From sequence record MZ234035.1: a stretch of DNA of 64,000 nucleotides, one strand, 5' to 3'. This document shows positions 10,868 through 55,492 of this stretch, piece by piece. This DNA comes from Escherichia phage vB_EcoM-G3F7. Within the stretch, counting starts at the first letter, position 1, and each line of letters opens with the position of its first letter. The position numbers and the translations under genes are program-made. The notes under the pieces are model-generated. The model did not search any database and was not told the origin of the DNA. It saw only the letters and a list, made by a program, of their open reading frames with translations.

Positions 10868-11128
10868 ATGATTAACATCAATTCAAAATATTTAAATCGT
10901 CTAATAGATTGTATAAGGAAGCATACTAATAAGCAAGATAATCTCGATGTTATGGTAACAGGAGCTGAGCTCCTTCATAAGCTTTATCTTATAAGTGATA
11001 CTATATTAGCAATTAAACGAATTGAAAAACAATCATATCACAGTAATACAGATACGGTAATTACACTAGATGAAAGTGTCTGTAAATTACTAATTAAATT
11101 TGAGGAAGCTATTCGTGGAAATAACTAA
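10868..11128 (+). CDS. Hypothetical small protein (86 aa)
   Basis: ATG with GAGGA SD. Confidence 0.45.
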   Translation: MININSKYLNRLIDCIRKHTNKQDNLDVMVTGAELLHKLYLISDTILAIKRIEKQSYHSNTDTVITLDESVCKLLIKFEEAIRGNN

Positions 11129-14939: not shown

Positions 14940-15311
14940 ATGTTTAAAATCGGTAAGAAATATCGCATTCGCGAAGGTGAAGAAAAGAAATATCTATTTT
15001 CTGCTATTTATAGGAATGGTTCTATTAATGCTGTAATATCTACAAGCGAATTTATCGTTGAAGATATGAAAGGTAATAATGTTACAATGATTAGTACAGC
15101 ATCTGGAAATGACGGAAAAATTCTTCACAGTTTTCAGAGTAATGTTCTAATTTATGATGAAGAATTTGACTTCTTCGAAGAAGTTCCCGAAGGTTTTGCT
15201 TTTGAATGCACTATCACTATGAAATCTGGTGACCCTCTTTCTTTTACAGTTAAAGATGAAGGAAGTCGCTTGAGAATTATTAGTCTTCTTCAAGCCATTA
15301 AATTTAAGTGA
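14940..15311 (+). CDS. Hypothetical protein (123 aa)
   Basis: Track ORF, ATG start. Confidence 0.5.
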   Translation: MFKIGKKYRIREGEEKKYLFSAIYRNGSINAVISTSEFIVEDMKGNNVTMISTASGNDGKILHSFQSNVLIYDEEFDFFEEVPEGFAFECTITMKSGDPLSFTVKDEGSRLRIISLLQAIKFK

Positions 15312-15646: not shown

Positions 15647-17464
15647 ATGATTAAGAATGAAATTAAAATTCTGAGCGATATTGAACATATCAAAAAGCGT
15701 AGCGGCATGTACATTGGCTCTTCTGCTAATGAAATGCATGAGCGCTTTCTGTTTGGTAAATGGGAAAGTGTTCAGTATGTACCTGGTCTTGTTAAGCTTA
15801 TTGATGAAATTATCGATAACTCAGTAGATGAAGGTATTCGTACTAAGTTTAAATTCGCAAATAAAATTAATGTTACTATTAAAAACAATCAAGTAACAGT
15901 TGAAGATAACGGTCGTGGTATTCCACAAGCGATGGTTAAAACACCTACCGGTGAAGAAATTCCTGGTCCAGTTGCTGCATGGACTATTCCAAAAGCGGGT
16001 GGTAACTTCGGTGATGATAAAGAACGCGTCACCGGCGGTATGAATGGTGTTGGTTCTAGTTTGACAAACATTTTTTCTGTGATGTTTGTCGGTGAAACTG
16101 GTGATGGTCAAAATAATATTGTAGTTCGTTGTTCAAATGGCATGGAAAATAAATCATGGGAAGATATTCCTGGAAAATGGAAAGGAACTCGTGTTACTTT
16201 CATTCCAGATTTTATGTCATTTGAAACTAATGAATTATCTCAAGTTTATCTTGACATTACACTAGATCGTCTCCAGACACTTGCTGTTGTTTATCCTGAT
16301 ATTCAATTTACCTTTAATGGTAAAAAGGTTCAGGGCAATTTTAAGAAATATGCACGACAGTATGATGAACATGCTATCGTTCAAGAACAAGAAAATTGTT
16401 CTATTGCGGTTGGTCGTTCACCCGACGGTTTTCGTCAATTAACATACGTCAATAACATTCATACTAAGAATGGTGGCCATCACATTGACTGTGTTATGGA
16501 TGATATTTGTGAAGACCTTATTCCACAAATCAAACGCAAGTTCAAAATTGATGTAACTAAAGCACGCGTTAAAGAATGTTTGACTATCGTTATGTTTGTT
16601 CGTGATATGAAAAACATGCGATTTGATTCTCAAACTAAAGAGCGTTTGACTTCTCCATTTGGTGAAATCCGTAGTCATATTCAGCTTGATGCTAAAAAGA
16701 TTTCACGTGCTATTTTGAATAATGAAGCAATTCTGATGCCAATTATTGAAGCTGCTTTGGCTCGTAAATTGGCGGCAGAAAAAGCAGCAGAAACTAAAGC
16801 AGCTAAAAAGGCATCTAAAGCTAAGGTTCATAAACATATCAAAGCGAATCTTTGTGGTAAAGATGCTGATACTACATTGTTCTTGACTGAGGGTGATTCT
16901 GCTATCGGATATCTTATTGATGTTCGTAATAAAGAACTTCATGGTGGTTATCCATTACGTGGTAAAGTTCTCAACAGTTGGGGTATGTCATATGCTGATA
17001 TGCTTAAAAACAAAGAACTATTTGATATTTGCGCAATCACTGGATTAGTTCTTGGTGAAAAAGCTGAAAACTTGAATTATCATAATATTGCTATTATGAC
17101 TGATGCTGACCATGATGGTCTAGGAAGCATTTATCCTTCTCTGCTTGGATTTTTTAGTAATTGGCCAGAACTGTTTGAGCAAGGAAGAATTCGCTTCGTC
17201 AAAACTCCTGTAATCATCGCTCAGGTCGGTAAAAAACAAGAATGGTTTTATACAGTCGCTGAATATGAGAGTGCCAAAGATGCTCTACCTAAACATAGCA
17301 TCCGTTATATTAAAGGACTTGGCTCTTTGGAAAAATCTGAATATCGTGAGATGATTCAAAACCCAGTATATGATGTTGTTAAACTTCCTGAGAACTGGAA
17401 AGAGCTTTTTGAAATGCTCATGGGAGATAATGCTGACCTTCGTAAAGAATGGATGAGCCAGTAG
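15647..17464 (+). CDS. 39: DNA topoisomerase II large (ATPase, GyrB-like) subunit, uninterrupted 39+60-type fusion
   Basis: 605 aa from ATG 15647 (track ORF starts at GTG 15644); GHKL ATPase plus TOPRIM region in a single ORF. Confidence 0.9.
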   Translation: MIKNEIKILSDIEHIKKRSGMYIGSSANEMHERFLFGKWESVQYVPGLVKLIDEIIDNSVDEGIRTKFKFANKINVTIKNNQVTVEDNGRGIPQAMVKTPTGEEIPGPVAAWTIPKAGGNFGDDKERVTGGMNGVGSSLTNIFSVMFVGETGDGQNNIVVRCSNGMENKSWEDIPGKWKGTRVTFIPDFMSFETNELSQVYLDITLDRLQTLAVVYPDIQFTFNGKKVQGNFKKYARQYDEHAIVQEQENCSIAVGRSPDGFRQLTYVNNIHTKNGGHHIDCVMDDICEDLIPQIKRKFKIDVTKARVKECLTIVMFVRDMKNMRFDSQTKERLTSPFGEIRSHIQLDAKKISRAILNNEAILMPIIEAALARKLAAEKAAETKAAKKASKAKVHKHIKANLCGKDADTTLFLTEGDSAIGYLIDVRNKELHGGYPLRGKVLNSWGMSYADMLKNKELFDICAITGLVLGEKAENLNYHNIAIMTDADHDGLGSIYPSLLGFFSNWPELFEQGRIRFVKTPVIIAQVGKKQEWFYTVAEYESAKDALPKHSIRYIKGLGSLEKSEYREMIQNPVYDVVKLPENWKELFEMLMGDNADLRKEWMSQ

Positions 17465-21146: not shown

Positions 21147-21704
21147 ATGCAGAAAACGAATCCGGGTTTGCAGAGACTATTTCAGATTCCGTCATTTACC
21201 CTATCGAACAGTGACTTGACTAGTGAAATGAAGGTCAAAATTGCTGATACTGCAAGATACTCTTTAAAACAAAACCCGAACCAGGATAAAGCAGAAGTTA
21301 TCGAAAGATGTCGTATCGCTGTGTACGCAGAGTTTTTTGTGGCAGATTGGCTAAGAGGGTATGTTAACAAAGGCCAAGAGGATGTTAATGACCCGTATAC
21401 ATACGCATGGGATGTACTGGCGCATCCAAAATACTGCGGGCTTCGTGTAGAAGTTAAGACACATCAAACTGACTCACGTTGGATTTCGGTAACAACAGGA
21501 TGCAGCGGAGAGTATCCATATGGTTCTGGAATAAATCTAGGGCCCATTCTAAATCATCAAGTCGCTGACTGTATAATTATATTCAACACTAAAGAAATTC
21601 ATCCAGGTGTCATCCAGTACACTCCGAAGTTCATCGGTGACAGAGAAGACCTTCGTAAGGTTGTAAGAAAAAGCAACTACAATGGATGGTATCTTTCCAT
21701 TTAA
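21147..21704 (+). CDS. denB: Endonuclease IV DenB
   Basis: 185 aa, size and synteny (after rIIB) as in T4. Confidence 0.8.
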   Translation: MQKTNPGLQRLFQIPSFTLSNSDLTSEMKVKIADTARYSLKQNPNQDKAEVIERCRIAVYAEFFVADWLRGYVNKGQEDVNDPYTYAWDVLAHPKYCGLRVEVKTHQTDSRWISVTTGCSGEYPYGSGINLGPILNHQVADCIIIFNTKEIHPGVIQYTPKFIGDREDLRKVVRKSNYNGWYLSI

Positions 21705-21720
21705 AAATTTTCACAAAACG

Positions 21721-21750
21721 GTTTACATACCACAAGGACTGTGGTACTAT
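21721..21750 (+). promoter_or_regulatory. T4-type early promoter (member of repeated promoter cassette)
   Basis: GTTTAC 21721-21726, 18-nt spacer, TACTAT 21745-21750. Confidence 0.5.
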
Positions 21751-21777
21751 ACAACTATCAGCTACGGAGGAGTAAAA

Positions 21778-22041
21778 ATGAAATTTAAATTTTATTACGC
21801 TAAACATAAAATTACCGGTGAATTTATTGCATTTACGACTTCAACTACAGATGAAGGAGATATTTTTACTGCAGTATTTTTATCAAAATGGGAATCAGAT
21901 CAACCTTACTTATCATCACGTGAAGATCTCCAACGATTAGTTAATGGAGAATATAATGATTCATGGTCATATTTAGTCCATGATTGTGTTAAAAAGGCAA
22001 TAAAACAAAAACACTTGGAAATCGTTGAGATTGAACTATGA
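21778..22041 (+). CDS. Hypothetical protein (87 aa)
   Basis: Track ORF 21682..22041 runs through the promoter; ATG 21778 follows GGAGG with 7-nt spacer. Confidence 0.5.
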   Translation: MKFKFYYAKHKITGEFIAFTTSTTDEGDIFTAVFLSKWESDQPYLSSREDLQRLVNGEYNDSWSYLVHDCVKKAIKQKHLEIVEIEL

Positions 22042-25445: not shown

Positions 25446-25673
25446 ATGAAATTTAAAATCGAAAACGAAATCGTTAAAGCTAAAAATGCTCTGACTGCTA
25501 ACAAACTGGTTGTAGATGGTATTGAATATGATATCTGTGGAGTTCGTGAAGAAAAACCTGGTGTTCTGACTTTCTTCACAATGATTTTTAAATTTAAAGG
25601 TGACACAGAATTCAAACAGTTTGATTTTGCCCATGAAGACGAAATCGAAGTTCGTAATCTGAACATTAAGTAA
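25446..25673 (+). CDS. Hypothetical protein (75 aa)
   Basis: Track ORF, ATG start after promoter. Confidence 0.5.
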   Translation: MKFKIENEIVKAKNALTANKLVVDGIEYDICGVREEKPGVLTFFTMIFKFKGDTEFKQFDFAHEDEIEVRNLNIK

Positions 25674-29322: not shown

Positions 29323-29355
29323 AGACCCTCCTTTTAAGGGTATTTATTCACATTA

Positions 29356-29552
29356 TACTCTTGGACCATATATTGCTCCAACATTTTGCCATGTTGGAGC
29401 GGACCCTATGACAGCATAACCAGCAGCGCCGCCATTATATTCAGATCCTTGACCGCGAATATTGCATCTACCTCCCGCGGAACCTACTTCACCACCGTTT
29501 CCACCATTATAGATACCATTCACGGATCCTGAGCCAGGTGCAGAAATAGAAT
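29356..29552 (-). other. 38: gp38 C-terminal coding segment lying in a different frame from the main gp38 ORF
   Basis: Minus-strand frame offset by one nt encodes ...[63 protein letters not shown] with stop at 29353-29355. Confidence 0.55.
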
Positions 29553-30107
29553 AGATCCTCCTGGCGCACCAAAAGGACGACCGCCACCACCACCAAAGGT
29601 CAATCTCATTCGTGAAAAAGGAGAATAATATCCGCCGCCGCCACCGCCGCCACCGCCTGCAATAGCTCCGCCATTATTAATTCTTAGTCTCCCACCAATA
29701 TCGTTTTGAATACAATGACCTCCAGCTGAGCCAGGACTATTGCTACCGCCATTACCTCCACGACCATACATCGTTACGCCATGTATATTTAACTGAACAT
29801 ATTCATTTGGTGTATCTCCGTACATGAAGAATAAAGGAACATCTTTAGAATAAGAAACGATATCACCAACAATATTGAATACAATAGGTGCACCGCCAGC
29901 TTCAAAGCATCTATCACGGAACCACTGACCATTAAAATTGTGGTTTGCTCCTACAGTATGAATAATTTCTCGTGAGCGACCTGCAAATTGACTCATCCAG
30001 CAAGGAACACCCAATCTTAATTGACCAGCCGCTTGACTCATCCAGCGCTGTCCTGTTTCATTTGCGGCTGAACTTCCAATCCAACCAGGAACACCAACTA
30101 CTGCCAT
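29520..30107 (-). CDS. 38: Tail-fibre adhesin gp38, T2-type with glycine-rich motifs; ORF ends prematurely at an apparent frameshift
   Basis: 195-codon [16 protein letters not shown]...[35 protein letters not shown] then out-of-frame tail; not the T4-type gp38 chaperone. Confidence 0.7.
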
Positions 30108-30120
30108 AATTTATACTCCA

Positions 30121-30139
30121 AAGGGGGCATTTCCCCCTT
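30121..30139 (-). other. Perfect 7-bp stem-loop between genes 37 and 38
   Basis: AAGGGGG-CATTT-CCCCCTT between gp37 stop and gp38 SD; no U-tract, so more likely an RNA structure than a terminator. Confidence 0.35.
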
Positions 30140-30143
30140 GTTG

Positions 30144-33092
30144 TTAGAATTTAAAATATTTACTAATTTTGCGAGCAATTTTAGTAAAGAGAGGCGTTTT
30201 CAATTCTTTAATTTCTTCACTCATTTCCTGAATAGCCTTAATTAAAAGAGCATTCACAGCAGAGTTAGAAATTGTCAGAACATCAGATCCATCAACTTCA
30301 ACTTTAGATACAGCTTCCGGTAATTCCTTTTCAAGGTCCTGAGCAATAATACCAACTTCACGTTTAATAACACTACGGTCTTTAATAGACTTAACTTTAT
30401 CGTAAATATAAACTTTCAGTCGGCAAACTTTTTCGACTGCTCCATATTCTAATTCTTCTTTATTAATCTTGAGACGGGAGTCAGAACGAATATACACATC
30501 GCTAAAGCTACCATTTCCTGGTGTATAAAAGAATCCATCATGATGGAATTCAAACACAGCTTGTGGGTGTCCAGCATCAGGAGAAGCCTCCGTGGATCCG
30601 ACACGAATGATTGCTTGCCCCCACTGTGATGGAATACGACGCATACCAAAGTCAACAGCGGTGCTATATCCTTGATTGGTTATAACGCTTCTTGCTTTAA
30701 GAATAGGATAATAACTATCTTGACCAACATAACCATGATCAACGAATAATGGAGCTTCTACTCGCCATTGGTTGCCCCAATCACCCGGTTGTCTAGCAAT
30801 CCATCCAGAACCGTTAATGTGTACACGGTCACGGTTAACGTTAACCATTGCGGTATTTTGCGGGTTTAACGCAATCTCACCATTGTTTGTGATATGTACT
30901 GCCGCCTGAGAAGCATAGCTATAAAATGCTAGCGAATTATCAGCACCACCCTTGCCAATATACCAGTTACCAGTCCCGTCTATGTCACCGCGAATATGCA
31001 AAGAATTACTAGCAGTTGTTGATAATACAATAGAATCATTAGGTGCATTGATTGTTAACCGACCTGTCATCGTATCACCGCCTTTACCTAGGCGAGTATT
31101 CAAGGCAGCATCTAAATTGGTTGCATCGTTGTATTTCTTCCAGATTGAACCAGCAATGTTACCATCAGTGTTCAAGAATGCTGCGCCAGCATAAACTCGG
31201 CTTTGTGACATGAATCGGCCAGACGGCAAGAAACGCCATATAGCTAATTCAGTGGCTGTAGTTCCAGTAGCGGATAAATCACCCTGAGCAACGATACGAT
31301 ATTCTGAACTAGCAATATCCATACCAGAAGCCATAGTAATATTTGTTACAGTGTTTTTCTGTTTAACAATTGGCGCAAACTGGTTTTTATTTGAATCGTC
31401 AATAGCCTGATATAATGGCGCAATGGTAGTATTCTGATTTGCGTAAGTATTAGAACCAGAACCGCTAGCAGGGGCTTGAATATATGCTCCTGGAGCAAGT
31501 GAAATTTTCTGATTAGCACCAAGATTAACAGCAGCAGTGATATTCAGCAATCCCCTAAAGTTTTGTTGAGCAGTCCAAGTGTGTGATCCGTCTTCAAGAA
31601 CAACACGACGACAAGTATTAGTCCTACTTCCTGGATTACCAGCGATACGAACAACGAAATAACGATAGTTCGCCTGAGATACAGTACCGCGCCACACTTG
31701 AACAGTTCGACCCGTTCCGGTATGTTCGCTAGGACCGACAGAAAACATAACCAGGTTTCCATCAATCGTGCCCCAATCCATATTTGCTGGCATATTCTTT
31801 ATTTTGTTCAAAGGAACACTAAACATACTACCAGGGACAAAATCAAAGGTTTGCCAATCTAACTCCGCTAATTGAGCTTTAATACCACCCATACCCAAAG
31901 TAATTGGCAGAGAATAAGATGTATATACTTCGTTCCATGCACCCCACGCACCACCAGTATATGCACGCTCAAAAATACGATCGCGAGTAGTTGCACCCGT
32001 TCCTGCGGTAGTGAAACGTTGGAAAATAGCACCGCCAGAAGCACGCTGTTTAACTTCCAGCAAACCAACAATAACAGTCGGCAAACCTTCACCTGTAGGA
32101 CAGTTAATAACGGCATCAGTGCCTAAAATATTATATAACCCGGGAGTTTTAAAATCATTCAGATCTCCATCATAGAAAGTCGCTGGTGTGCCATGACCAA
32201 CCTGCTTCCATTCCTCCCACTTAGGTGCACTAGCATCCCATGCAGCAGCGAGACAACGAGTATAAACCATACCCATGCGGGTAGTATAACGCTGAGTTCT
32301 CGTGTATAAACCACCTTCAAATATTTCTAAAAATCCTTGTGCGGCTGATCCTTCTTCTGGATAATGGCGATCAAATGATGCGATTGCGCTTGAACTGTTT
32401 CGCCATAAGCCACAATGTTCTAATTTTCCCAAGCTATCAAGGTCAATCGTTTGTGAAAGTGGACGAGTTGACGCTTGAACATTACGCCACACACCCCATG
32501 GACCATCGACGCCATTCCATTTAGCAGATAAGGAACGAATATAGACGTTACCAGATCTTACAGTATAACGCTGAGTGCCAGCAAATTGGCCGGCCACAAA
32601 CACTTCTAGTACACCTACGGCATTTTCTTCTGGGAATTTATTTGCTGGTTGCGCATTTGTTGAAGTAGATTTCGACCAAACACCAAGATATTCTTCAATG
32701 GGCCCATACGTATCTAAATTAGCATCAGTAGGTAATTCGCCATTATTTTTTATAAATGTTGTGCTATTGACATTTATGTCAGATGGAGTTAAGGTAATGT
32801 CCTTTGACCCATCAAAAGATATACCATTAATTTTCCTAGGTGTTTGCAATTTAGTAGCTGTGCTAGAATTTCCAATTAAAGTTCCAGTTATATTTTCTGT
32901 AACCTCTAAAGACCCATTTATAGTTCCTCCATATTTTAAACCTAATTCTATAACACTACCTGAGTCATCTTTTGTGAAAATTGTTTTATCTTTTAAGTTT
33001 ATAGCCAATTCACCTTCGGCTAATACTGAAGCAGCAGGACGTTGACCTGCAGTTTTGCTTCTTTTAAATTGTATTTGTTTTAAAGTAGCCAT
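30144..33092 (-). CDS. 37: Long tail fibre distal subunit gp37 (T2-type)
   Basis: 982 aa; N-terminus [13 protein letters not shown] conserved with T4 gp37, remainder divergent from T4 as I recall it. Confidence 0.88.
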
Positions 33093-40107: not shown

Positions 40108-40423
40108 TATTCGCCCGGTCGATGAGACCGGTCTTTCAGAAAAAGAACTTTCAATCAAGAAAGAAAAGGATGAAATAGCAAAGCTTCTTGATCGTCAAGA
40201 AAATGGATTTATTATTGAAAAAATGGTAGAAGAGTTTGGAATGAGTTATCTTGAAGCTACAACAGCATTCTTGGAAGAAAATTCTATTCCTGAAACTCAA
40301 TTTGCTAAATTTATTCCTTCTGGTATAATTGAAAAAATTCAGTCAGAAGCTATTGACGAAAATCTTTTACGTCCTTCTGTTGTTCGTTGTGAAAAAACTA
40401 ATACATTAGATTTTCTACTATGA
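40085..40423 (+). CDS. 33: Late transcription co-activator gp33
   Basis: Track ORF 40076..40423 starts TTG; from ATG 40085 the 112-aa product MTQFSLNDIRPVDETG... matches T4 gp33 as recalled. Confidence 0.85.
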   Translation: MTQFSLNDIRPVDETGLSEKELSIKKEKDEIAKLLDRQENGFIIEKMVEEFGMSYLEATTAFLEENSIPETQFAKFIPSGIIEKIQSEAIDENLLRPSVVRCEKTNTLDFLL

Positions 40424-41073
40424 TTAAACTCCGCATGCCTGCTGGTGGTGAAAGATACATTGATGGTAAATCAGTTTATAAATTATACTTAATGATAAAA
40501 CAGCATATGAATGGAAAGTATGATGTAATTAAGTATAATTGGTGCATGCGGGTGTCTGATGCCGCTTATCAAAAGCGAAGGGATAAGTATTTTTTCCAGA
40601 AGTTATCAGAAAAATATAAATTAAAGGAACTTGCTTTAATTTTTATAAGTAATTTGGTTGCTAACCAAGATGCTTGGATTGGTGACATCTCTGACGCTGA
40701 TGCACTTGTGTTTTATCGTGAATATATCGGACGCTTAAAACAAATTAAATTTAAGTTTGAAGAAGATATTCGCAACATTTATTATTTTAGTAAAAAAGTT
40801 GAAGTTTCTGCTTTTAAAGAAATCTTTGAGTATAATCCAAAGGTTCAATCAAGTTATATTTTTAAACTTCTGCAATCGAACATAATTTCGTTTGAGACGT
40901 TTATCTTGCTTGATTCGTTTTTAAATATAATTGATAAACACGATGAACAGACTGATAATTTAGTCTGGAATAATTATTCTATAAAGTTAAAGGCTTATAG
41001 AAAAATTTTAAATATTGATTCACAGAAAGCTAAAAATGTTTTCATTGAAACTGTGAAATCTTGCAAGTATTGA
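40420..41073 (+). CDS. 59: Helicase loader gp59
   Basis: 217 aa MIKLRMPAGGERYIDGKSVYKLYLMIKQHMNGKYD...; matches T4 gp59 as recalled. Confidence 0.9.
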   Translation: MIKLRMPAGGERYIDGKSVYKLYLMIKQHMNGKYDVIKYNWCMRVSDAAYQKRRDKYFFQKLSEKYKLKELALIFISNLVANQDAWIGDISDADALVFYREYIGRLKQIKFKFEEDIRNIYYFSKKVEVSAFKEIFEYNPKVQSSYIFKLLQSNIISFETFILLDSFLNIIDKHDEQTDNLVWNNYSIKLKAYRKILNIDSQKAKNVFIETVKSCKY

Positions 41074-41074
41074 T

Positions 41075-41707
41075 ATGAATATAGTATATTGGTTTACATT
41101 TGAAGACCGTGTCAAAAATAAGACTCCGCCATACTACTATATCGGTAGTAAATTAAATTGCTCATTTGAGAACGGAATAATATATGACTCTTCCGGAAAG
41201 GAATACTGGAGCTCATGTAAACAAAAAAGATTTTTGAATGCGCTAATGCTTCAAAAACCGAGCGTTAAAATAATTCAAATTGATGATGACTTGGATGTTA
41301 TTGAAGCAGAACGAAAATACCAACTTGAAGTAAATGCCAGAGATAATCCAGACTATTTTAATCTGGTATATGCTGGTGGTGGATTTGGTGTGAGTGGTGA
41401 AACTCATCCAGCCAAAGACTCGGAAGTTAGAGAGCATATGAGATTGGCTAATTATATGAACCGTGACGATTTTAGACCTTGGAAAACATCACGAGCTAAT
41501 ATAGAGTCTTGGAAATTATCTCATATTGCTTACGAGAATTATGTGTTATTATTATCCTCTAATCTGTACGGTAAAACTCCTGGATGGCGAAGAGTTAAAG
41601 GTAATATAAATATAACTGATACAACTGCTAAATCGATGGTAAAGTATTTCAACTCAGGTTGGATACCTCTCGAAGACCCAGAGTATTGCGAATTATGCCA
41701 GCTATGA
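41075..41707 (+). mobile_element. Free-standing GIY-YIG homing endonuclease (SegG-like position between 59 and 32)
   Basis: 210 aa; GIY-YIG-like N-terminus IVYWFTF...PYYYIGSK and downstream E/N region (YQLEVNARDNPDYFNLVYAGGGFG). Confidence 0.55.
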
Positions 41708-41761
41708 GGTAAAGTGTCATAGCACCAACTGTTAATTAAATTAAATTAAAAAGGAAATAAA

Positions 41762-42667
41762 ATGTTTAAACGTAAATCTACTGCTGAACTTGCTGCACAA
41801 ATGGCTAAACTGAATGGCAATAAAGGTTTTTCTTCTGAAGATAAAGGCGAGTGGAAACTGAAACTCGATAATGCGGGTAACGGTCAAGCAGTAATTCGTT
41901 TTCTTCCGTCTAAAAATGATGAACAAGCACCATTCGCAATTCTTGTAAATCACGGTTTCAAGAAAAATGGTAAATGGTATATTGAAACATGTTCATCTAC
42001 CCATGGTGATTACGATTCTTGCCCAGTATGTCAGTACATCAGTAAAAATGATCTGTACAACACTGACAATAAAGAGTACAGTCTTGTTAAACGTAAAACT
42101 TCTTACTGGGCTAATATTCTTGTAGTAAAAGACCCAGCTGCTCCAGAAAACGAAGGTAAAGTATTTAAATACCGTTTCGGTAAGAAAATCTGGGATAAAA
42201 TTAATGCAATGATTGCAGTTGATGTTGAAATGGGTGAAACTCCGGTTGATGTAACTTGTCCGTGGGAAGGTGCTAACTTTGTACTGAAAGTTAAACAGGT
42301 TTCTGGATTTAGTAACTACGATGAATCTAAATTCCTGAATCAATCTGCGATTCCAAACATTGACGATGAATCTTTCCAGAAAGAACTGTTCGAACAAATG
42401 GTTGACCTTTCTGAAATGACTTCTAAAGATAAATTCAAATCGTTTGAAGAACTGAGCACTAAGTTCAGTCAAGTTATGGGAACTGCTGCTATGGGTGGTG
42501 CCGCAGCAACTGCCGCTAAGAAAGCTGATAAAGTTGCTGATGATTTGGATGCATTCAATGTTGATGACTTCAATGCAAAAACTGAAGATGATTTTATGAG
42601 CTCAAGCTCTGGCAGTTCATCTAGTGTTGATGACACGGACCTGGATGACCTTTTGAATGACCTTTAA
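41762..42667 (+). CDS. 32: Single-stranded DNA-binding protein gp32
   Basis: 301 aa [49 protein letters not shown]...; matches T4 gp32 as recalled. Confidence 0.95.
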
Positions 42668-42689
42668 TAGATTATATTACTAATTAATT

Positions 42690-42714
42690 GGGGACCTCTA
42701 GGGTCCCCTTTTTT
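42690..42714 (+). terminator. Rho-independent terminator after gene 32
   Basis: GGGGACC-TCTAG-GGTCCCC followed by TTTTTT. Confidence 0.65.
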
Positions 42715-42739
42715 ATTTCAAAAATTTTTTCACAAAACG

Positions 42740-42769
42740 GTTTACATCCTTGTCCTTCCATGGTACTAT
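42740..42769 (+). promoter_or_regulatory. T4-type early promoter (repeated cassette)
   Basis: GTTTAC 42740-42745, 18-nt spacer, TACTAT 42764-42769. Confidence 0.5.
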
Positions 42770-42812
42770 ACAACTATCGGCAATACTGCTGATGATTAAA
42801 GAGGAAAATAAT

Positions 42813-43841: not shown

Positions 43842-44671
<830 letters not shown>

Positions 44672-44691: not shown

Positions 44692-45039
44692 ATGAATTTT
44701 AATTATTACCCTATTCTATTAGAAAAAGACACGAAACAGCCAAAGTGGCAGGGTCCTCAGTTTATTAAAGGTGTCTATCAATTAGTAGTTCCTAAAGACA
44801 AGATTTATAGCAGTTGTTTCACTGAATCCGCTTGCAGTATTTTCGGTAATAGTTCTCTGTATTGGAATTTTGACATAAAGCTGGATAGAAATATCGATAT
44901 TTGGTTGAAAGCTATGGATATTGGTAATATCACGTTTGATGAGAATAATTATCATATTATTGGTCGCTTTTCCAAACGCGGTAAAGAATTATATTTCACG
45001 CCTGAAATTGAGAGAAAATTTGATGCTAAACCGTATTGA
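44692..45039 (+). CDS. Hypothetical protein inserted between frd and td (115 aa)
   Basis: Track ORF 44680..45039 starts GTG; ATG at 44692; no recognisable domain. Confidence 0.5.
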   Translation: MNFNYYPILLEKDTKQPKWQGPQFIKGVYQLVVPKDKIYSSCFTESACSIFGNSSLYWNFDIKLDRNIDIWLKAMDIGNITFDENNYHIIGRFSKRGKELYFTPEIERKFDAKPY

Positions 45040-46485: not shown

Positions 46486-48740
46486 TTAATGTTATCAAAA
46501 GTAGTGGTGTTTCTCAGAGCTTTGACCCGCAAAAAATTATTAAAGTTTTATCTTGGGCAGCTGAAGGAACATCAGTAGATCCTTATGAATTATATGAAAA
46601 TATTAAATCTTATCTCCGTGATGGAATGACAACTAATGATATTCAGACTATTGTCATTAAGGCTGCTGCGAATTCTATTTCGGTTGAAGAGCCTGATTAT
46701 CAATATGTAGCTGCACGTTGTTTAATGTTTGCTCTTCGTAAGCATGTTTATGGACAGTATGAACCACGTTCATTTATTGACCATATTTCTTACTGTGTAA
46801 ATGAAGGTAAATACGACCCTGAATTATTGTCAAAATATTCAGCAGAAGAAATTACATTTTTAGAATCAAAAATTAAGCACGAGCGGGATATGGAATTTAC
46901 TTATTCCGGGGCGATGCAATTAAAAGAAAAATATCTTGTTAAAGATAAAACCACTGGTCAAATTTATGAAACTCCACAGTTTGCATTTATGACTATTGGA
47001 ATGGCACTGCATCAAGATGAACCTGTTGATAGATTAAAACATGTTATCCGTTTTTATGAAGCAGTATCTACTCGACAGATTTCATTGCCAACTCCTATTA
47101 TGGCTGGTTGTCGTACTCCGACTCGACAGTTTAGTTCATGCGTTGTTATTGAGGCAGGTGATTCGCTGAAGTCTATCAATAAAGCTTCTGCTTCAATTGT
47201 TGAATATATTTCTAAACGCGCTGGAATTGGAATTAACGTAGGTATGATTCGTGCTGAAGGTTCTAAGATTGGCATGGGTGAAGTACGCCATACTGGTGTT
47301 ATTCCTTTTTGGAAACATTTTCAGACTGCAGTTAAATCATGTTCACAGGGTGGAATTCGTGGCGGCGCTGCTACTGCTTATTATCCTATTTGGCATTTGG
47401 AAGTTGAAAATCTTCTCGTTTTGAAAAATAACAAAGGCGTAGAAGAAAACCGCATTCGTCACATGGATTATGGTGTTCAGCTGAATGATCTAATGATGGA
47501 ACGATTCGGAAAGAACGATTACATTACTTTGTTCAGTCCACATGAAATGGGTGGCGAGCTTTATTATTCTTATTTTAAAGATCAAGACCGTTTCCGTGAA
47601 TTATACGAAGCAGCAGAAAAAGACCCTAATATTCGTAAAAAGCGTATTAAAGCCCGTGAACTATTTGAATTGCTCATGACTGAACGTTCAGGAACAGCAA
47701 GGATTTATGTGCAGTTCATTGATAATACGAATAACTATACTCCGTTTATTCGTGAAAAGGCACCTATTCGTCAGAGTAACTTGTGCTGTGAAATTGCTAT
47801 TCCAACAAATGATGTGAATAGCCCTGATGCTGAAATTGGATTGTGTACTCTTTCTGCATTCGTATTAGATAATTTTGACTGGCAAGACCAAGATAAAATT
47901 AATGAATTGGCAGAAGTTCAAGTTCGTGCTCTTGATAATCTTTTGGATTATCAAGGATATCCAGTTCCTGAAGCAGAAAAAGCTAAAAAGCGTCGTAACC
48001 TCGGTGTAGGTGTTACCAACTATGCAGCTTGGCTGGCAAGTAACTTTGCTTCTTATGAAGATGCTAACGATTTAACACATGAACTATTTGAGAGATTACA
48101 GTATGGACTCATTAAAGCATCCATTAAGCTCGCCAAAGAAAAAGGACCTTGCGAATATTATTCAGACACTCGTTGGTCTCGAGGCGAATTACCTATCGAC
48201 TGGTACAATAAAAAGATTGACCAAATCGCAGCTCCAAAATACGTTTGTGACTGGTCGTCGCTGCGGGAAGACCTTAAGCTCTTTGGCATCCGTAATAGCA
48301 CATTATCAGCACTTATGCCATGTGAGTCATCTTCCCAAGTTTCTAACAGTACAAACGGTATCGAGCCTCCACGTGGACCAGTCTCTGTTAAAGAATCAAA
48401 AGAGGGCTCCTTTAATCAAGTCGTGCCCAATATTGAGCATAACATAGACCTTTACGACTATACATGGAAATTAGCTAAGAAAGGTAATAAACCTTATCTT
48501 ACGCAGGTAGCTATTATGCTGAAATGGGTTTGTCAATCAGCTTCGGCGAATACATACTATGACCCCCAAATCTTCCCTAAAGGCAAGGTTCCAATGTCAA
48601 TAATGATTGATGACCTTTTGTATTTTTGGTATTTTGGCGGAAAAAATTTCTATTATCATAATACCCGCGATGGTTCTGGTACTGATGATTATGAAATAGA
48701 AACTCCAAAAGCTGAAGAGTGTTCATCCTGTAAATTATGA
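46476..48740 (+). CDS. nrdA: Aerobic ribonucleotide reductase large subunit NrdA
   Basis: 754 aa, class Ia RNR; matches T4 NrdA size and sequence as recalled. Confidence 0.93.
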   Translation: MQLINVIKSSGVSQSFDPQKIIKVLSWAAEGTSVDPYELYENIKSYLRDGMTTNDIQTIVIKAAANSISVEEPDYQYVAARCLMFALRKHVYGQYEPRSFIDHISYCVNEGKYDPELLSKYSAEEITFLESKIKHERDMEFTYSGAMQLKEKYLVKDKTTGQIYETPQFAFMTIGMALHQDEPVDRLKHVIRFYEAVSTRQISLPTPIMAGCRTPTRQFSSCVVIEAGDSLKSINKASASIVEYISKRAGIGINVGMIRAEGSKIGMGEVRHTGVIPFWKHFQTAVKSCSQGGIRGGAATAYYPIWHLEVENLLVLKNNKGVEENRIRHMDYGVQLNDLMMERFGKNDYITLFSPHEMGGELYYSYFKDQDRFRELYEAAEKDPNIRKKRIKARELFELLMTERSGTARIYVQFIDNTNNYTPFIREKAPIRQSNLCCEIAIPTNDVNSPDAEIGLCTLSAFVLDNFDWQDQDKINELAEVQVRALDNLLDYQGYPVPEAEKAKKRRNLGVGVTNYAAWLASNFASYEDANDLTHELFERLQYGLIKASIKLAKEKGPCEYYSDTRWSRGELPIDWYNKKIDQIAAPKYVCDWSSLREDLKLFGIRNSTLSALMPCESSSQVSNSTNGIEPPRGPVSVKESKEGSFNQVVPNIEHNIDLYDYTWKLAKKGNKPYLTQVAIMLKWVCQSASANTYYDPQIFPKGKVPMSIMIDDLLYFWYFGGKNFYYHNTRDGSGTDDYEIETPKAEECSSCKL

Positions 48741-48791: not shown

Positions 48792-49961
48792 ATGAGCACA
48801 GTTTTTAATACAAATCCAGTTGATGTTTTAAAAGAACCTATGTTCTTCGGTTCAGGTCTTGGTATTGCGCGTTATGATATTCAACGCCATAAAGTTTTTG
48901 AAGATTTGACTGAAAAGCAATTATCATTTTTCTGGCGTCCTGAAGAAGTAAACTTGATGATGGATGCTGCACAATTTAATAAACTTCCTCAGTATCAACA
49001 GAATATTTTTACTAATAACCTGAAGTATCAATCACTTTTGGATAGCATTCAGGGTCGCGCGCCATCTGCTGTACTTATGTCATTAATTTCAGACCCAAGC
49101 CTTGATACATGGGTTGCTACGTGGACTTTTAGTGAAACTATTCACAGCCGTTCATATACACATATCATGCGAAATCTTTATACTGATCCATCGAAGGTGT
49201 TTGATGAGATTGTATTAGATGAAGCTATTATGAAACGTGCTGAGTCCATTGGGCGATATTACGATGATGTCTTGGTTAAAACCCGTGAATGGGAAAACGC
49301 TAAAGAAGAATACGAAGGAATTTTGTCTGAAGGTTGGCGCAAAGATGAACTTGGTAAAGTCGTTGAATACGCCAAACGAGAGCTAATGAAATCTCTTTAC
49401 CTCTGTTTGCACGTTATTAATGCCTTAGAAGCTATTCGTTTTTATGTATCTTTCGCATGTACCTTTAACTTCCACAAGAATATGGAAATCATGGAAGGTA
49501 ATGCCAAGATTATGAAGTTCATTGCACGTGATGAACAGCTTCACCTTAAAGGCACCCAATATATTATTCGTCAGCTTCAATCCGGTACTGATGGTGATGA
49601 ATGGGTTAAAATTGCTCAAGAGTGTGAACAAGAAGCAGTTGATATTTTCATGGAAGTTAACCGCCAAGAAAAAGATTGGGCAGTTCATTTATTTAAAGAT
49701 GGCGATGTTCCTGGATTAAATACAAATAGCATGTGGAGCTTTATTGATTACTTAACTGTATCTCGTATGAAACAGTGCGGTCTTCCATGCCCAATTACCG
49801 ATGCTCCGGTTAAACATCCATATCCTTGGATTCGTGAATATCTTAATTCTGATAATGTTCAATCCGCGCCACAAGAAGTAGAACTGTCATCTTACCTTGT
49901 TGCACAGATTGATAATGATGTTGATGATAAAGTTATGATGAGTTTTAAAAAATACTTTTAA
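48792..49961 (+). CDS. nrdB: Ribonucleotide reductase small subunit NrdB, uninterrupted (no intron)
   Basis: 389 aa continuous ORF; T4 NrdB-like. Confidence 0.93.
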   Translation: MSTVFNTNPVDVLKEPMFFGSGLGIARYDIQRHKVFEDLTEKQLSFFWRPEEVNLMMDAAQFNKLPQYQQNIFTNNLKYQSLLDSIQGRAPSAVLMSLISDPSLDTWVATWTFSETIHSRSYTHIMRNLYTDPSKVFDEIVLDEAIMKRAESIGRYYDDVLVKTREWENAKEEYEGILSEGWRKDELGKVVEYAKRELMKSLYLCLHVINALEAIRFYVSFACTFNFHKNMEIMEGNAKIMKFIARDEQLHLKGTQYIIRQLQSGTDGDEWVKIAQECEQEAVDIFMEVNRQEKDWAVHLFKDGDVPGLNTNSMWSFIDYLTVSRMKQCGLPCPITDAPVKHPYPWIREYLNSDNVQSAPQEVELSSYLVAQIDNDVDDKVMMSFKKYF

Positions 49962-53008: not shown

Positions 53009-54233
<1,225 letters not shown>

Positions 54234-54964: not shown

Positions 54965-55492
54965 ATGAGCGAATGGTTTGAAGAAGATAAGGTTTATCGC
55001 TTTAAAGCTGGATATAAAGATATTTTTAATGAAACTTGCGGGGCTAATAAACGAATTGCCCAGTTTATTGGGGAAAATTCATTTAAAGTAAAAATAGATC
55101 CTGCGAAAAATGTTATTAGCATTAAACGCGAAATTGATGATTGTTGGTATAAAGCTGTTGATGTAATGGGCGAATCTTATAAAGTTAGCCCGTTATTTTC
55201 AATTGCTTATATGTTAGAATATTCTTTTTTCGAAGAAGTTCAAAAAGATGATTCTGTCAGTAAATTTGAAATTAAAACTGATAAAGAAATTAAGTGGAAA
55301 GTAGTAGGTATTACTGGTTGTATGTTTTATATCTATGCTCAAACTGATACGAAGGAAGAAGCTAAAAAGAAAGCTCTAGAATATCTTGAAGAGTATGAAG
55401 AAGGCCCGGTAATGATTACTCAAGATGCTGAATTAGTTTCTGTCAAATTAGTTAAAAACGTTGAAAGTAAGGAGCTGGGATCAACATGCTAA
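54965..55492 (+). CDS. Hypothetical protein (175 aa)
   Basis: Track ORF, ATG after GAGGAAA. Confidence 0.5.
   Translation: MSEWFEEDKVYRFKAGYKDIFNETCGANKRIAQFIGENSFKVKIDPAKNVISIKREIDDCWYKAVDVMGESYKVSPLFSIAYMLEYSFFEEVQKDDSVSKFEIKTDKEIKWKVVGITGCMFYIYAQTDTKEEAKKKALEYLEEYEEGPVMITQDAELVSVKLVKNVESKELGSTC

Follow-up and report, generated by a model that had tools for sequence, protein, structure and literature searches.

The T4 gene segG (gene 32.1; Liu et al., 2003, J Mol Biol 334:13) is listed as a free-standing, experimentally active homing endonuclease gene of the GIY-YIG family, located between genes 32 and 59 and with gene 32 as target (PMC2988022, Table 1). According to the account of Liu et al. 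(2003) given in two reviews, SegG introduces a break in the T2-type gene 32, and these reviews place the cleavage no closer than 'gene 32' (PMC2988022; PMC2330249). When T4 is crossed with T2, gene 32 markers of T2L are excluded, and this was found to be due to SegG, acting by homing with co-conversion (PMC2330249); T4 x T2 is the only combination for which over-inheritance with co-conversion was demonstrated experimentally (PMC2988022; PMC2330249). The cleavage sites of free-standing endonucleases lie hundreds to thousands of bp away from the endonuclease gene and, therefore, resection has to reach homology past the insert for this gene to be inherited (PMC2988022). The T4 enzyme SegF is similar in being a free-standing GIY-YIG endonuclease that cuts a neighbouring conserved gene of T2 and causes localised marker exclusion (PMC2988022; PMC2330249). 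It differs from SegG in its family, PHROG 314 as compared to PHROG 7504, and in its target, gene 56, and the two proteins show no detectable sequence similarity past the motif level (hhalign not significant). I-TevI (catalytic domain 1LN0/1MK0) is encoded in an intron, and its cleavage site is at most 25 bp from its insertion site; for the free-standing Seg enzymes the distance amounts to hundreds of bp (PMC2988022). SegG and I-TevI share 15% sequence identity; in SegG the GIY-YIG spacer is longer and includes an additional helix, and the conserved arginine has no obvious equivalent. SegG-like endonucleases named 'gp32.1' are encoded by, e.g., the phages VR5, VR7, PSD2002 and DK-13, being 58-63% identical over the full length; these are divergent alleles from other genera of Tevenvirinae. 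At least in VR7, DK-13 and NC-G the SegG-like gene adjoins gene 59 according to the annotation.

The stretch of DNA analysed here, referred to as the window, comprises 64,000 nt of Escherichia phage vB_EcoM-G3F7 (MZ234035.1), a Tequatrovirus of the species gee4498. A preliminary description of it, made from the letters alone, had reported a 210-aa ORF wedged between the genes for the helicase loader and the single-stranded DNA-binding protein (SSB), at the position of T4 segG. The ORF list bears this out, including the quoted N-terminus: the ORF starts with ATG and the protein begins with MNIVYWFTFEDRVKNKTPPYYYIGSK (Table 1). Both flanking genes are identified by Pfam, gene 59 by T4_Gp59_N (E 1e-53) and T4_Gp59_C (E 1e-52) and gene 32 by gp32 (E 1.5e-66), and gp33, DsbA and RNase H are encoded further upstream of gene 59. 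The resulting gene order, rnh-dsbA-33-59-segG-32-frd.3, is that of T4. The ORF has the same orientation as genes 59 and 32, and the TGA stop codon of gene 59 (41071-41073) ends one base ahead of its ATG. Directly after gene 32, at 42690-42708, a strong hairpin resembling an intrinsic terminator is present (GGGGACC...GGTCCCC, followed by a T run).

The ORF not only occupies the position of T4 segG, it is segG itself. Its product is identical to T4 SegG (NP_049855.1) in 209 of 210 residues, with no gaps, and the DNA is 99.8% identical. The T4 RefSeq and GenBank records annotate 'SegG homing endonuclease; GIY-YIG family' between genes 59 and 32, also with a length of 633 bp, and segG is annotated in T4 and in RB phages. 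PHROG 7504 ('homing endonuclease') matches the ORF end to end (E 3e-133); together with the identity to T4 SegG this means that the ORF is a real conserved gene and no chance ORF. A megablast search with the block from gene 59 to gene 32 returned 838 phage records. The identity of the block is 100% to Escherichia phages vB_EcoM-CHD94UKE2 and vB_EcoM-G3F10; to T4 it is 98.5%, and the T4 annotation names the middle gene segG. The gene is thus like its T4 counterpart in length, site, orientation and overlap with the gene 32 leader, and unlike it in a single residue, S116 instead of P116 (one base change at 41420), and in the surrounding genome, which belongs to another Tequatrovirus species. Residue 116 is located just past the inter-domain linker; it is proline in T4 and in four other sampled segG carriers, and mostly proline in the closest members of the SegG family. 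It is almost certain that the ORF is segG in its canonical place, flanked by genes 59 and 32, and that it is a free-standing homing endonuclease gene of the GIY-YIG type, with homing as in T4. As such it is already known, being a textbook gene that is annotated in an identical public genome.

Table 1. Features of the segG locus and of further endonuclease-related loci in the window.
Feature	Position	Strand	Basis or remarks
segG ORF, 210 aa, free-standing homing endonuclease	41075..41707	+	ORF list; T4 SegG identity; PHROG 7504
segG insert, defined against empty sites	41072..41697	+	genome alignments
N-terminal catalytic domain, ~aa 1-102, GIY-YIG fold	41075..41380	+	Y5 (IVY), Y22-I23-G24 (YIG), K26, E79, N96
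C-terminal helical domain, ~aa 110-210	41402..41704	+	presumed DNA-binding/target recognition
Candidate gene 32 middle promoter inside segG	41523..41552	+	MotA-box-like ATATTGCTTAC (TGCTT at 41527); -10 TATTAT 41547-41552
Candidate gene 32 late promoter inside segG	41605..41612	+	T4 late-promoter consensus TATAAATA; PMC2988022
Candidate RNase E processing site GAAUUA	41690..41695	+	71 nt upstream of gene 32 AUG
Gene 32 leader pseudoknot (translational operator)	41696..41723	+	5' part overlaps last segG codons; PMC535899, alignment
Gene 59 (helicase loader), left flank	40420..41073	+	Pfam T4_Gp59_N and T4_Gp59_C; T4 annotation
Gene 32 (SSB), right flank; published SegG target in segG-less phages	41762..42667	+	Pfam gp32; PMC2988022, PMC2330249
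segF, between 56 and soc, 224 aa	3988..4662		PHROG 314 homing endonuclease
td, uninterrupted, 286 aa	45085..45945		without T4's 1-kb intron and I-TevI
nrdB, uninterrupted	48792..49961		without nrdB intron
Gene 39, topoisomerase II large subunit, single 605-aa ORF	15647..17464		blastn against T4 and ORF map

The insert could be delimited against empty sites. For this, 15 genomes were aligned, of which six carry segG and nine do not (T2, RB27, SG1 and six others). Between genes 59 and 32, a near-identical spacer of 99 bp is present at all nine empty sites (TAA TTGCTTATTATAAATAGATTATAATTATCTCACTGA CCAGCTATGAGG...); 38 bp of this spacer (AATTGCTTATTATAAATAGATTATAATTATCTCACTGA) are replaced by the 626 bp of the insert. 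The last three codons of segG (CAG CTA TGA) fall in sequence that is also found at the empty sites. In T4, the pseudoknot of gene 32 was reported to overlap with the reading frame of segG, and it was suggested that segG may have grown into operator sequence that was already present (PMC535899); the shared last codons agree with this overlap. Concerning the distribution, 498 phage records have flanks with at least 95% identity and only about 140 of them span the whole query; the remaining ones match in two pieces, over 1662 bp versus 2248 bp, and their annotations leave the interval from 59 to 32 free of genes. An independent count gave 141 records with segG at 95% identity or more. Carriage thus amounts to approximately 28% of the flank-matching records, duplicate database records being counted. 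segG is missing from roughly 70% of the close relatives and the empty site is clean, so that the gene is not conserved in all relatives, as a non-mobile gene would be, and the reading as a mobile element holds.

Possible traces of segG transfer are seen in the flanks. Compared to T4, the window has one difference in segG, and gene 32 differs at 25 of 906 positions, of which one lies in the first 270 bp and 24 in the remainder, from 42034 onward. Averaged over all pairs of the six carriers, the insert differs by 1.3%, gene 59 by 2.0% and distal gene 32 by 3.0%. These differences are compatible with a spread of segG along with its nearest flanks, as judged from few genomes and with no phylogenetic control. 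Across the 15 aligned genomes, the only fixed flank differences between carriers and non-carriers are located at 41709-41715, a segment that would, by our own assignment, form the 3' arm of stem 1 and the loop of the gene 32 pseudoknot. Carriers have the pseudoknot sequence UGCC...GGUAAAGUG and non-carriers UGACC...GGUCAUACAUCG, in strict linkage with segG in all 15 genomes. Both arms of stem 1 differ together, the 5' arm (UGCC) being located inside the last segG codons. Codons 18-21 of gene 32 (41813-41824) show a two-state haplotype, which includes a 3-bp indel resulting in a gp32 of 301 versus 302 aa and which tracks segG in 13 of the 15 genomes; the exceptions are HY01 (segG-positive with the T2-type) and SG1 (segG-negative with the T4-type). 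The fixed differences and the haplotype are, within these 15 genomes, compatible with co-conversion of the flanks. No fixed polymorphism within gene 32 separates all segG-positive from all segG-negative phages among the 15 genomes, which could have marked an immune target. The gene 32 leader further contains an AATTA repeat (41733-41749), present in about two to five copies among close relatives independent of segG.

Identity with the T4 gene, the boundaries of the insert, its patchy occurrence, the fold of the protein and the promoter motifs were established in the present analysis, while cleavage, homing and co-conversion are taken from the literature on the near-identical T4 SegG, which differs in one residue. 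Accordingly worded, segG would be co-transcribed with its neighbouring genes and, in a mixed infection with a segG-less relative, SegG would introduce a double-strand break in the relative's gene 32, distant from the insertion site. The cleavage site may be located about 330 bp from the insertion site. The break would be resected and repaired from the segG-carrying genome, whereby segG and flanking gene 32 and gene 59 sequence would be copied into the recipient. Genetically, such intronless homing would be apparent as a localised exclusion of gene 32 markers of T2. On arrival, the insert would have displaced the ancestral spacer holding the gene 32 promoters and would have supplied substitute middle and late motifs in its own coding sequence. 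Loss of the insert would then be costly, because the promoter motifs lie inside segG and its 3' end overlaps the translational operator of gene 32.

In T4, gene 32 is essential and has its middle and late promoters within segG, which discourages a loss of segG by deletion; furthermore, RNase E processes the segG/gene 32 transcripts (PMC2988022). In the window, a scan for sigma-70 promoters gave no excess of sites over shuffled sequence. Since such a scan is blind to T4 middle and late promoters, these motifs were searched for directly. The ATATTGCTTAC/TATTAT motif probably corresponds to the published middle promoter of gene 32. The late motif TATAAATA at 41605 is the only one in 40420-41770 and one of five on the plus strand of the whole window. 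At the empty sites, the spacer contains TGCTTA, TATAAATA and TATAAT. These are gone from the spacer here, and segG holds TGCTTA/TATTAT and TATAAATA within its own coding sequence. The RNase E site at -71 with the motif RAUUW is presumably represented by GAAUUA in the segG-gene 32 transcript. A scan of 40400-42800 against Rfam returned no family for the gene 32 pseudoknot; a sub-threshold match to a Drosophila scaRNA was dismissed as chance.

The location of gene 32 signals inside the ORF raises the question of whether segG is kept in this phage only for these, i.e., as an inactive or domesticated remnant whose remaining role is to supply gene 32 with its promoters and with the 5' part of the operator pseudoknot. 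Besides the promoter motifs (PMC2988022) and the pseudoknot overlap, the private P116S change of this SegG copy would fit such a remnant, and according to the annotations T4 itself holds defunct endonuclease genes such as I-TevIII and mobA. However, the ORF is full-length and encodes a protein that is one residue off the T4 protein reported to be active, the conserved residues of the catalytic domain are all intact, and residue 116 is located outside this domain. A remnant is thus very unlikely, and an active homing endonuclease gene that at the same time carries gene 32 signals is the preferred reading.

The preliminary description had also proposed a GIY-YIG-like N-terminal module, and this part of the protein is regarded here as a nuclease fold of the GIY-YIG alpha/beta type. 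In the structural model, the catalytic domain is connected by a linker of low confidence (aa 103-108) to a C-terminal helical domain, which is presumed to be responsible for DNA binding and target recognition. A homologue search among 5.8 billion proteins yielded 29 homologues, and in an alignment of 27 SegG family members Y22, I23, G24, E79 and N96 are invariant and Y5 is kept in at least 90%. In order and spacing, the conserved residues fit the GIY, YIG, Glu and Asn elements of the superfamily, and by this they would correspond to Y6, Y17, E75 and N90 of I-TevI. The spacer between the GIY and YIG motifs comprises 17 residues, which is unusually long, and bears a short helix with the near-invariant R12. 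GIY-YIG enzymes usually have a conserved arginine in the helix after the YIG strand. In the 27 sequences no arginine past YIG is kept throughout: several members have another residue in place of R52, R12 is located ahead of YIG, and the invariant K26 is a lysine. The model shows a beta-hairpin at residues 30-37, where I-TevI has a helix with the conserved R27.

These deviations probably explain why sequence profiles miss the domain, namely the long spacer and the lack of an invariant arginine after YIG. A Pfam scan of the ORF gave no match at E<=1, and the 29 homologues likewise have no Pfam domain on record. Searches of PDB sequences with phmmer, and with hmmsearch using the 27-sequence family profile, gave chance matches only. 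The hhalign comparison of the SegG family with an I-TevI/SegA/SegF alignment was not significant (probability 0.4%), this alignment of three sequences probably being too shallow, and the Foldseek match to I-TevI was not significant (E 1.5). The missing Pfam and PDB profile matches and the long GIY-to-YIG spacing might be taken to indicate an ordinary, non-mobile accessory gene of T-even phages with no nuclease activity, its resemblance to GIY-YIG enzymes being accidental. This is contradicted by the published experiments on T4 SegG, and such an accessory gene has a negligible probability. For segG as a homing endonuclease gene, a more speculative reading can be tentatively considered, namely that the SegG family is a divergent GIY-YIG subgroup missed by the profiles and that the arrival of segG brought or selected the stem 1 variant of the pseudoknot. 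If so, the active site of the SegG family would possibly be built otherwise than in I-TevI. A small divergent SegG subgroup and a segG-linked pseudoknot variant are mildly non-obvious and leave the overall picture unchanged. More distant members of the SegG family keep the N-terminal domain and have different C-terminal domains. Within the 29-member family, at least four C-terminal halves that are unrelated to one another follow the nuclease domain, one with a CxxC...H..C pattern and another with a terminal helix-turn-helix-like segment.

The further endonuclease content was assessed by blastn of the window against the corresponding T4 regions and by the ORF map. The earlier assertion that another seg-type element is present between 56 and soc, and that the T4-type intron and mob elements are lacking in td, nrdB and gene 39, was confirmed: the former is segF, and the three latter genes are uninterrupted. 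mobE and nrdB.1 are absent between nrdA, which ends at 48740, and nrdB. Gene 39 has neither the mobA/60.1 insertion of T4 nor the split into 39 and 60 nor the translational bypass region of 50 nt. Of T4's free-standing seg endonucleases, two are retained in the window (segF and segG), and the introns of td and nrdB, mobE and the insertion of mobA/gene 60 are missing. This corresponds to the known patchwork of endonucleases in T-even phages, and the finding of segG has little weight beyond correct annotation. In co-infection, gene 32 markers of segG-less relatives and gene 56 markers of segF-less relatives are predicted to be excluded by this phage, which would in turn serve as a recipient for I-TevI and mobE of T4.

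ORFs of the window that are missing from T4 were considered as further homing endonucleases and rejected, as all belong to PHROGs without known function. A 115-aa ORF (PHROG 1928, function unknown) at 44692-45039 separates frd from td, two genes that directly overlap in T4; in T2, an ORF is present at this spot as well. Compared to the T4 junctions, extra small ORFs belonging to PHROGs of unknown function are found at 53009-53329, 54965-55492, 14940-15311, 10868-11128, 21682-22041, 25446-25673 and 43842-44087. PHROGs 622 and 3710 are each matched by two of these ORFs, 54965-55492 and 14940-15311. Most of the distal tail-fibre region (T4 genes 37/38), at 29347-32938, has no blastn match to T4, so that the receptor-binding tail-fibre sequences differ from those of T4.
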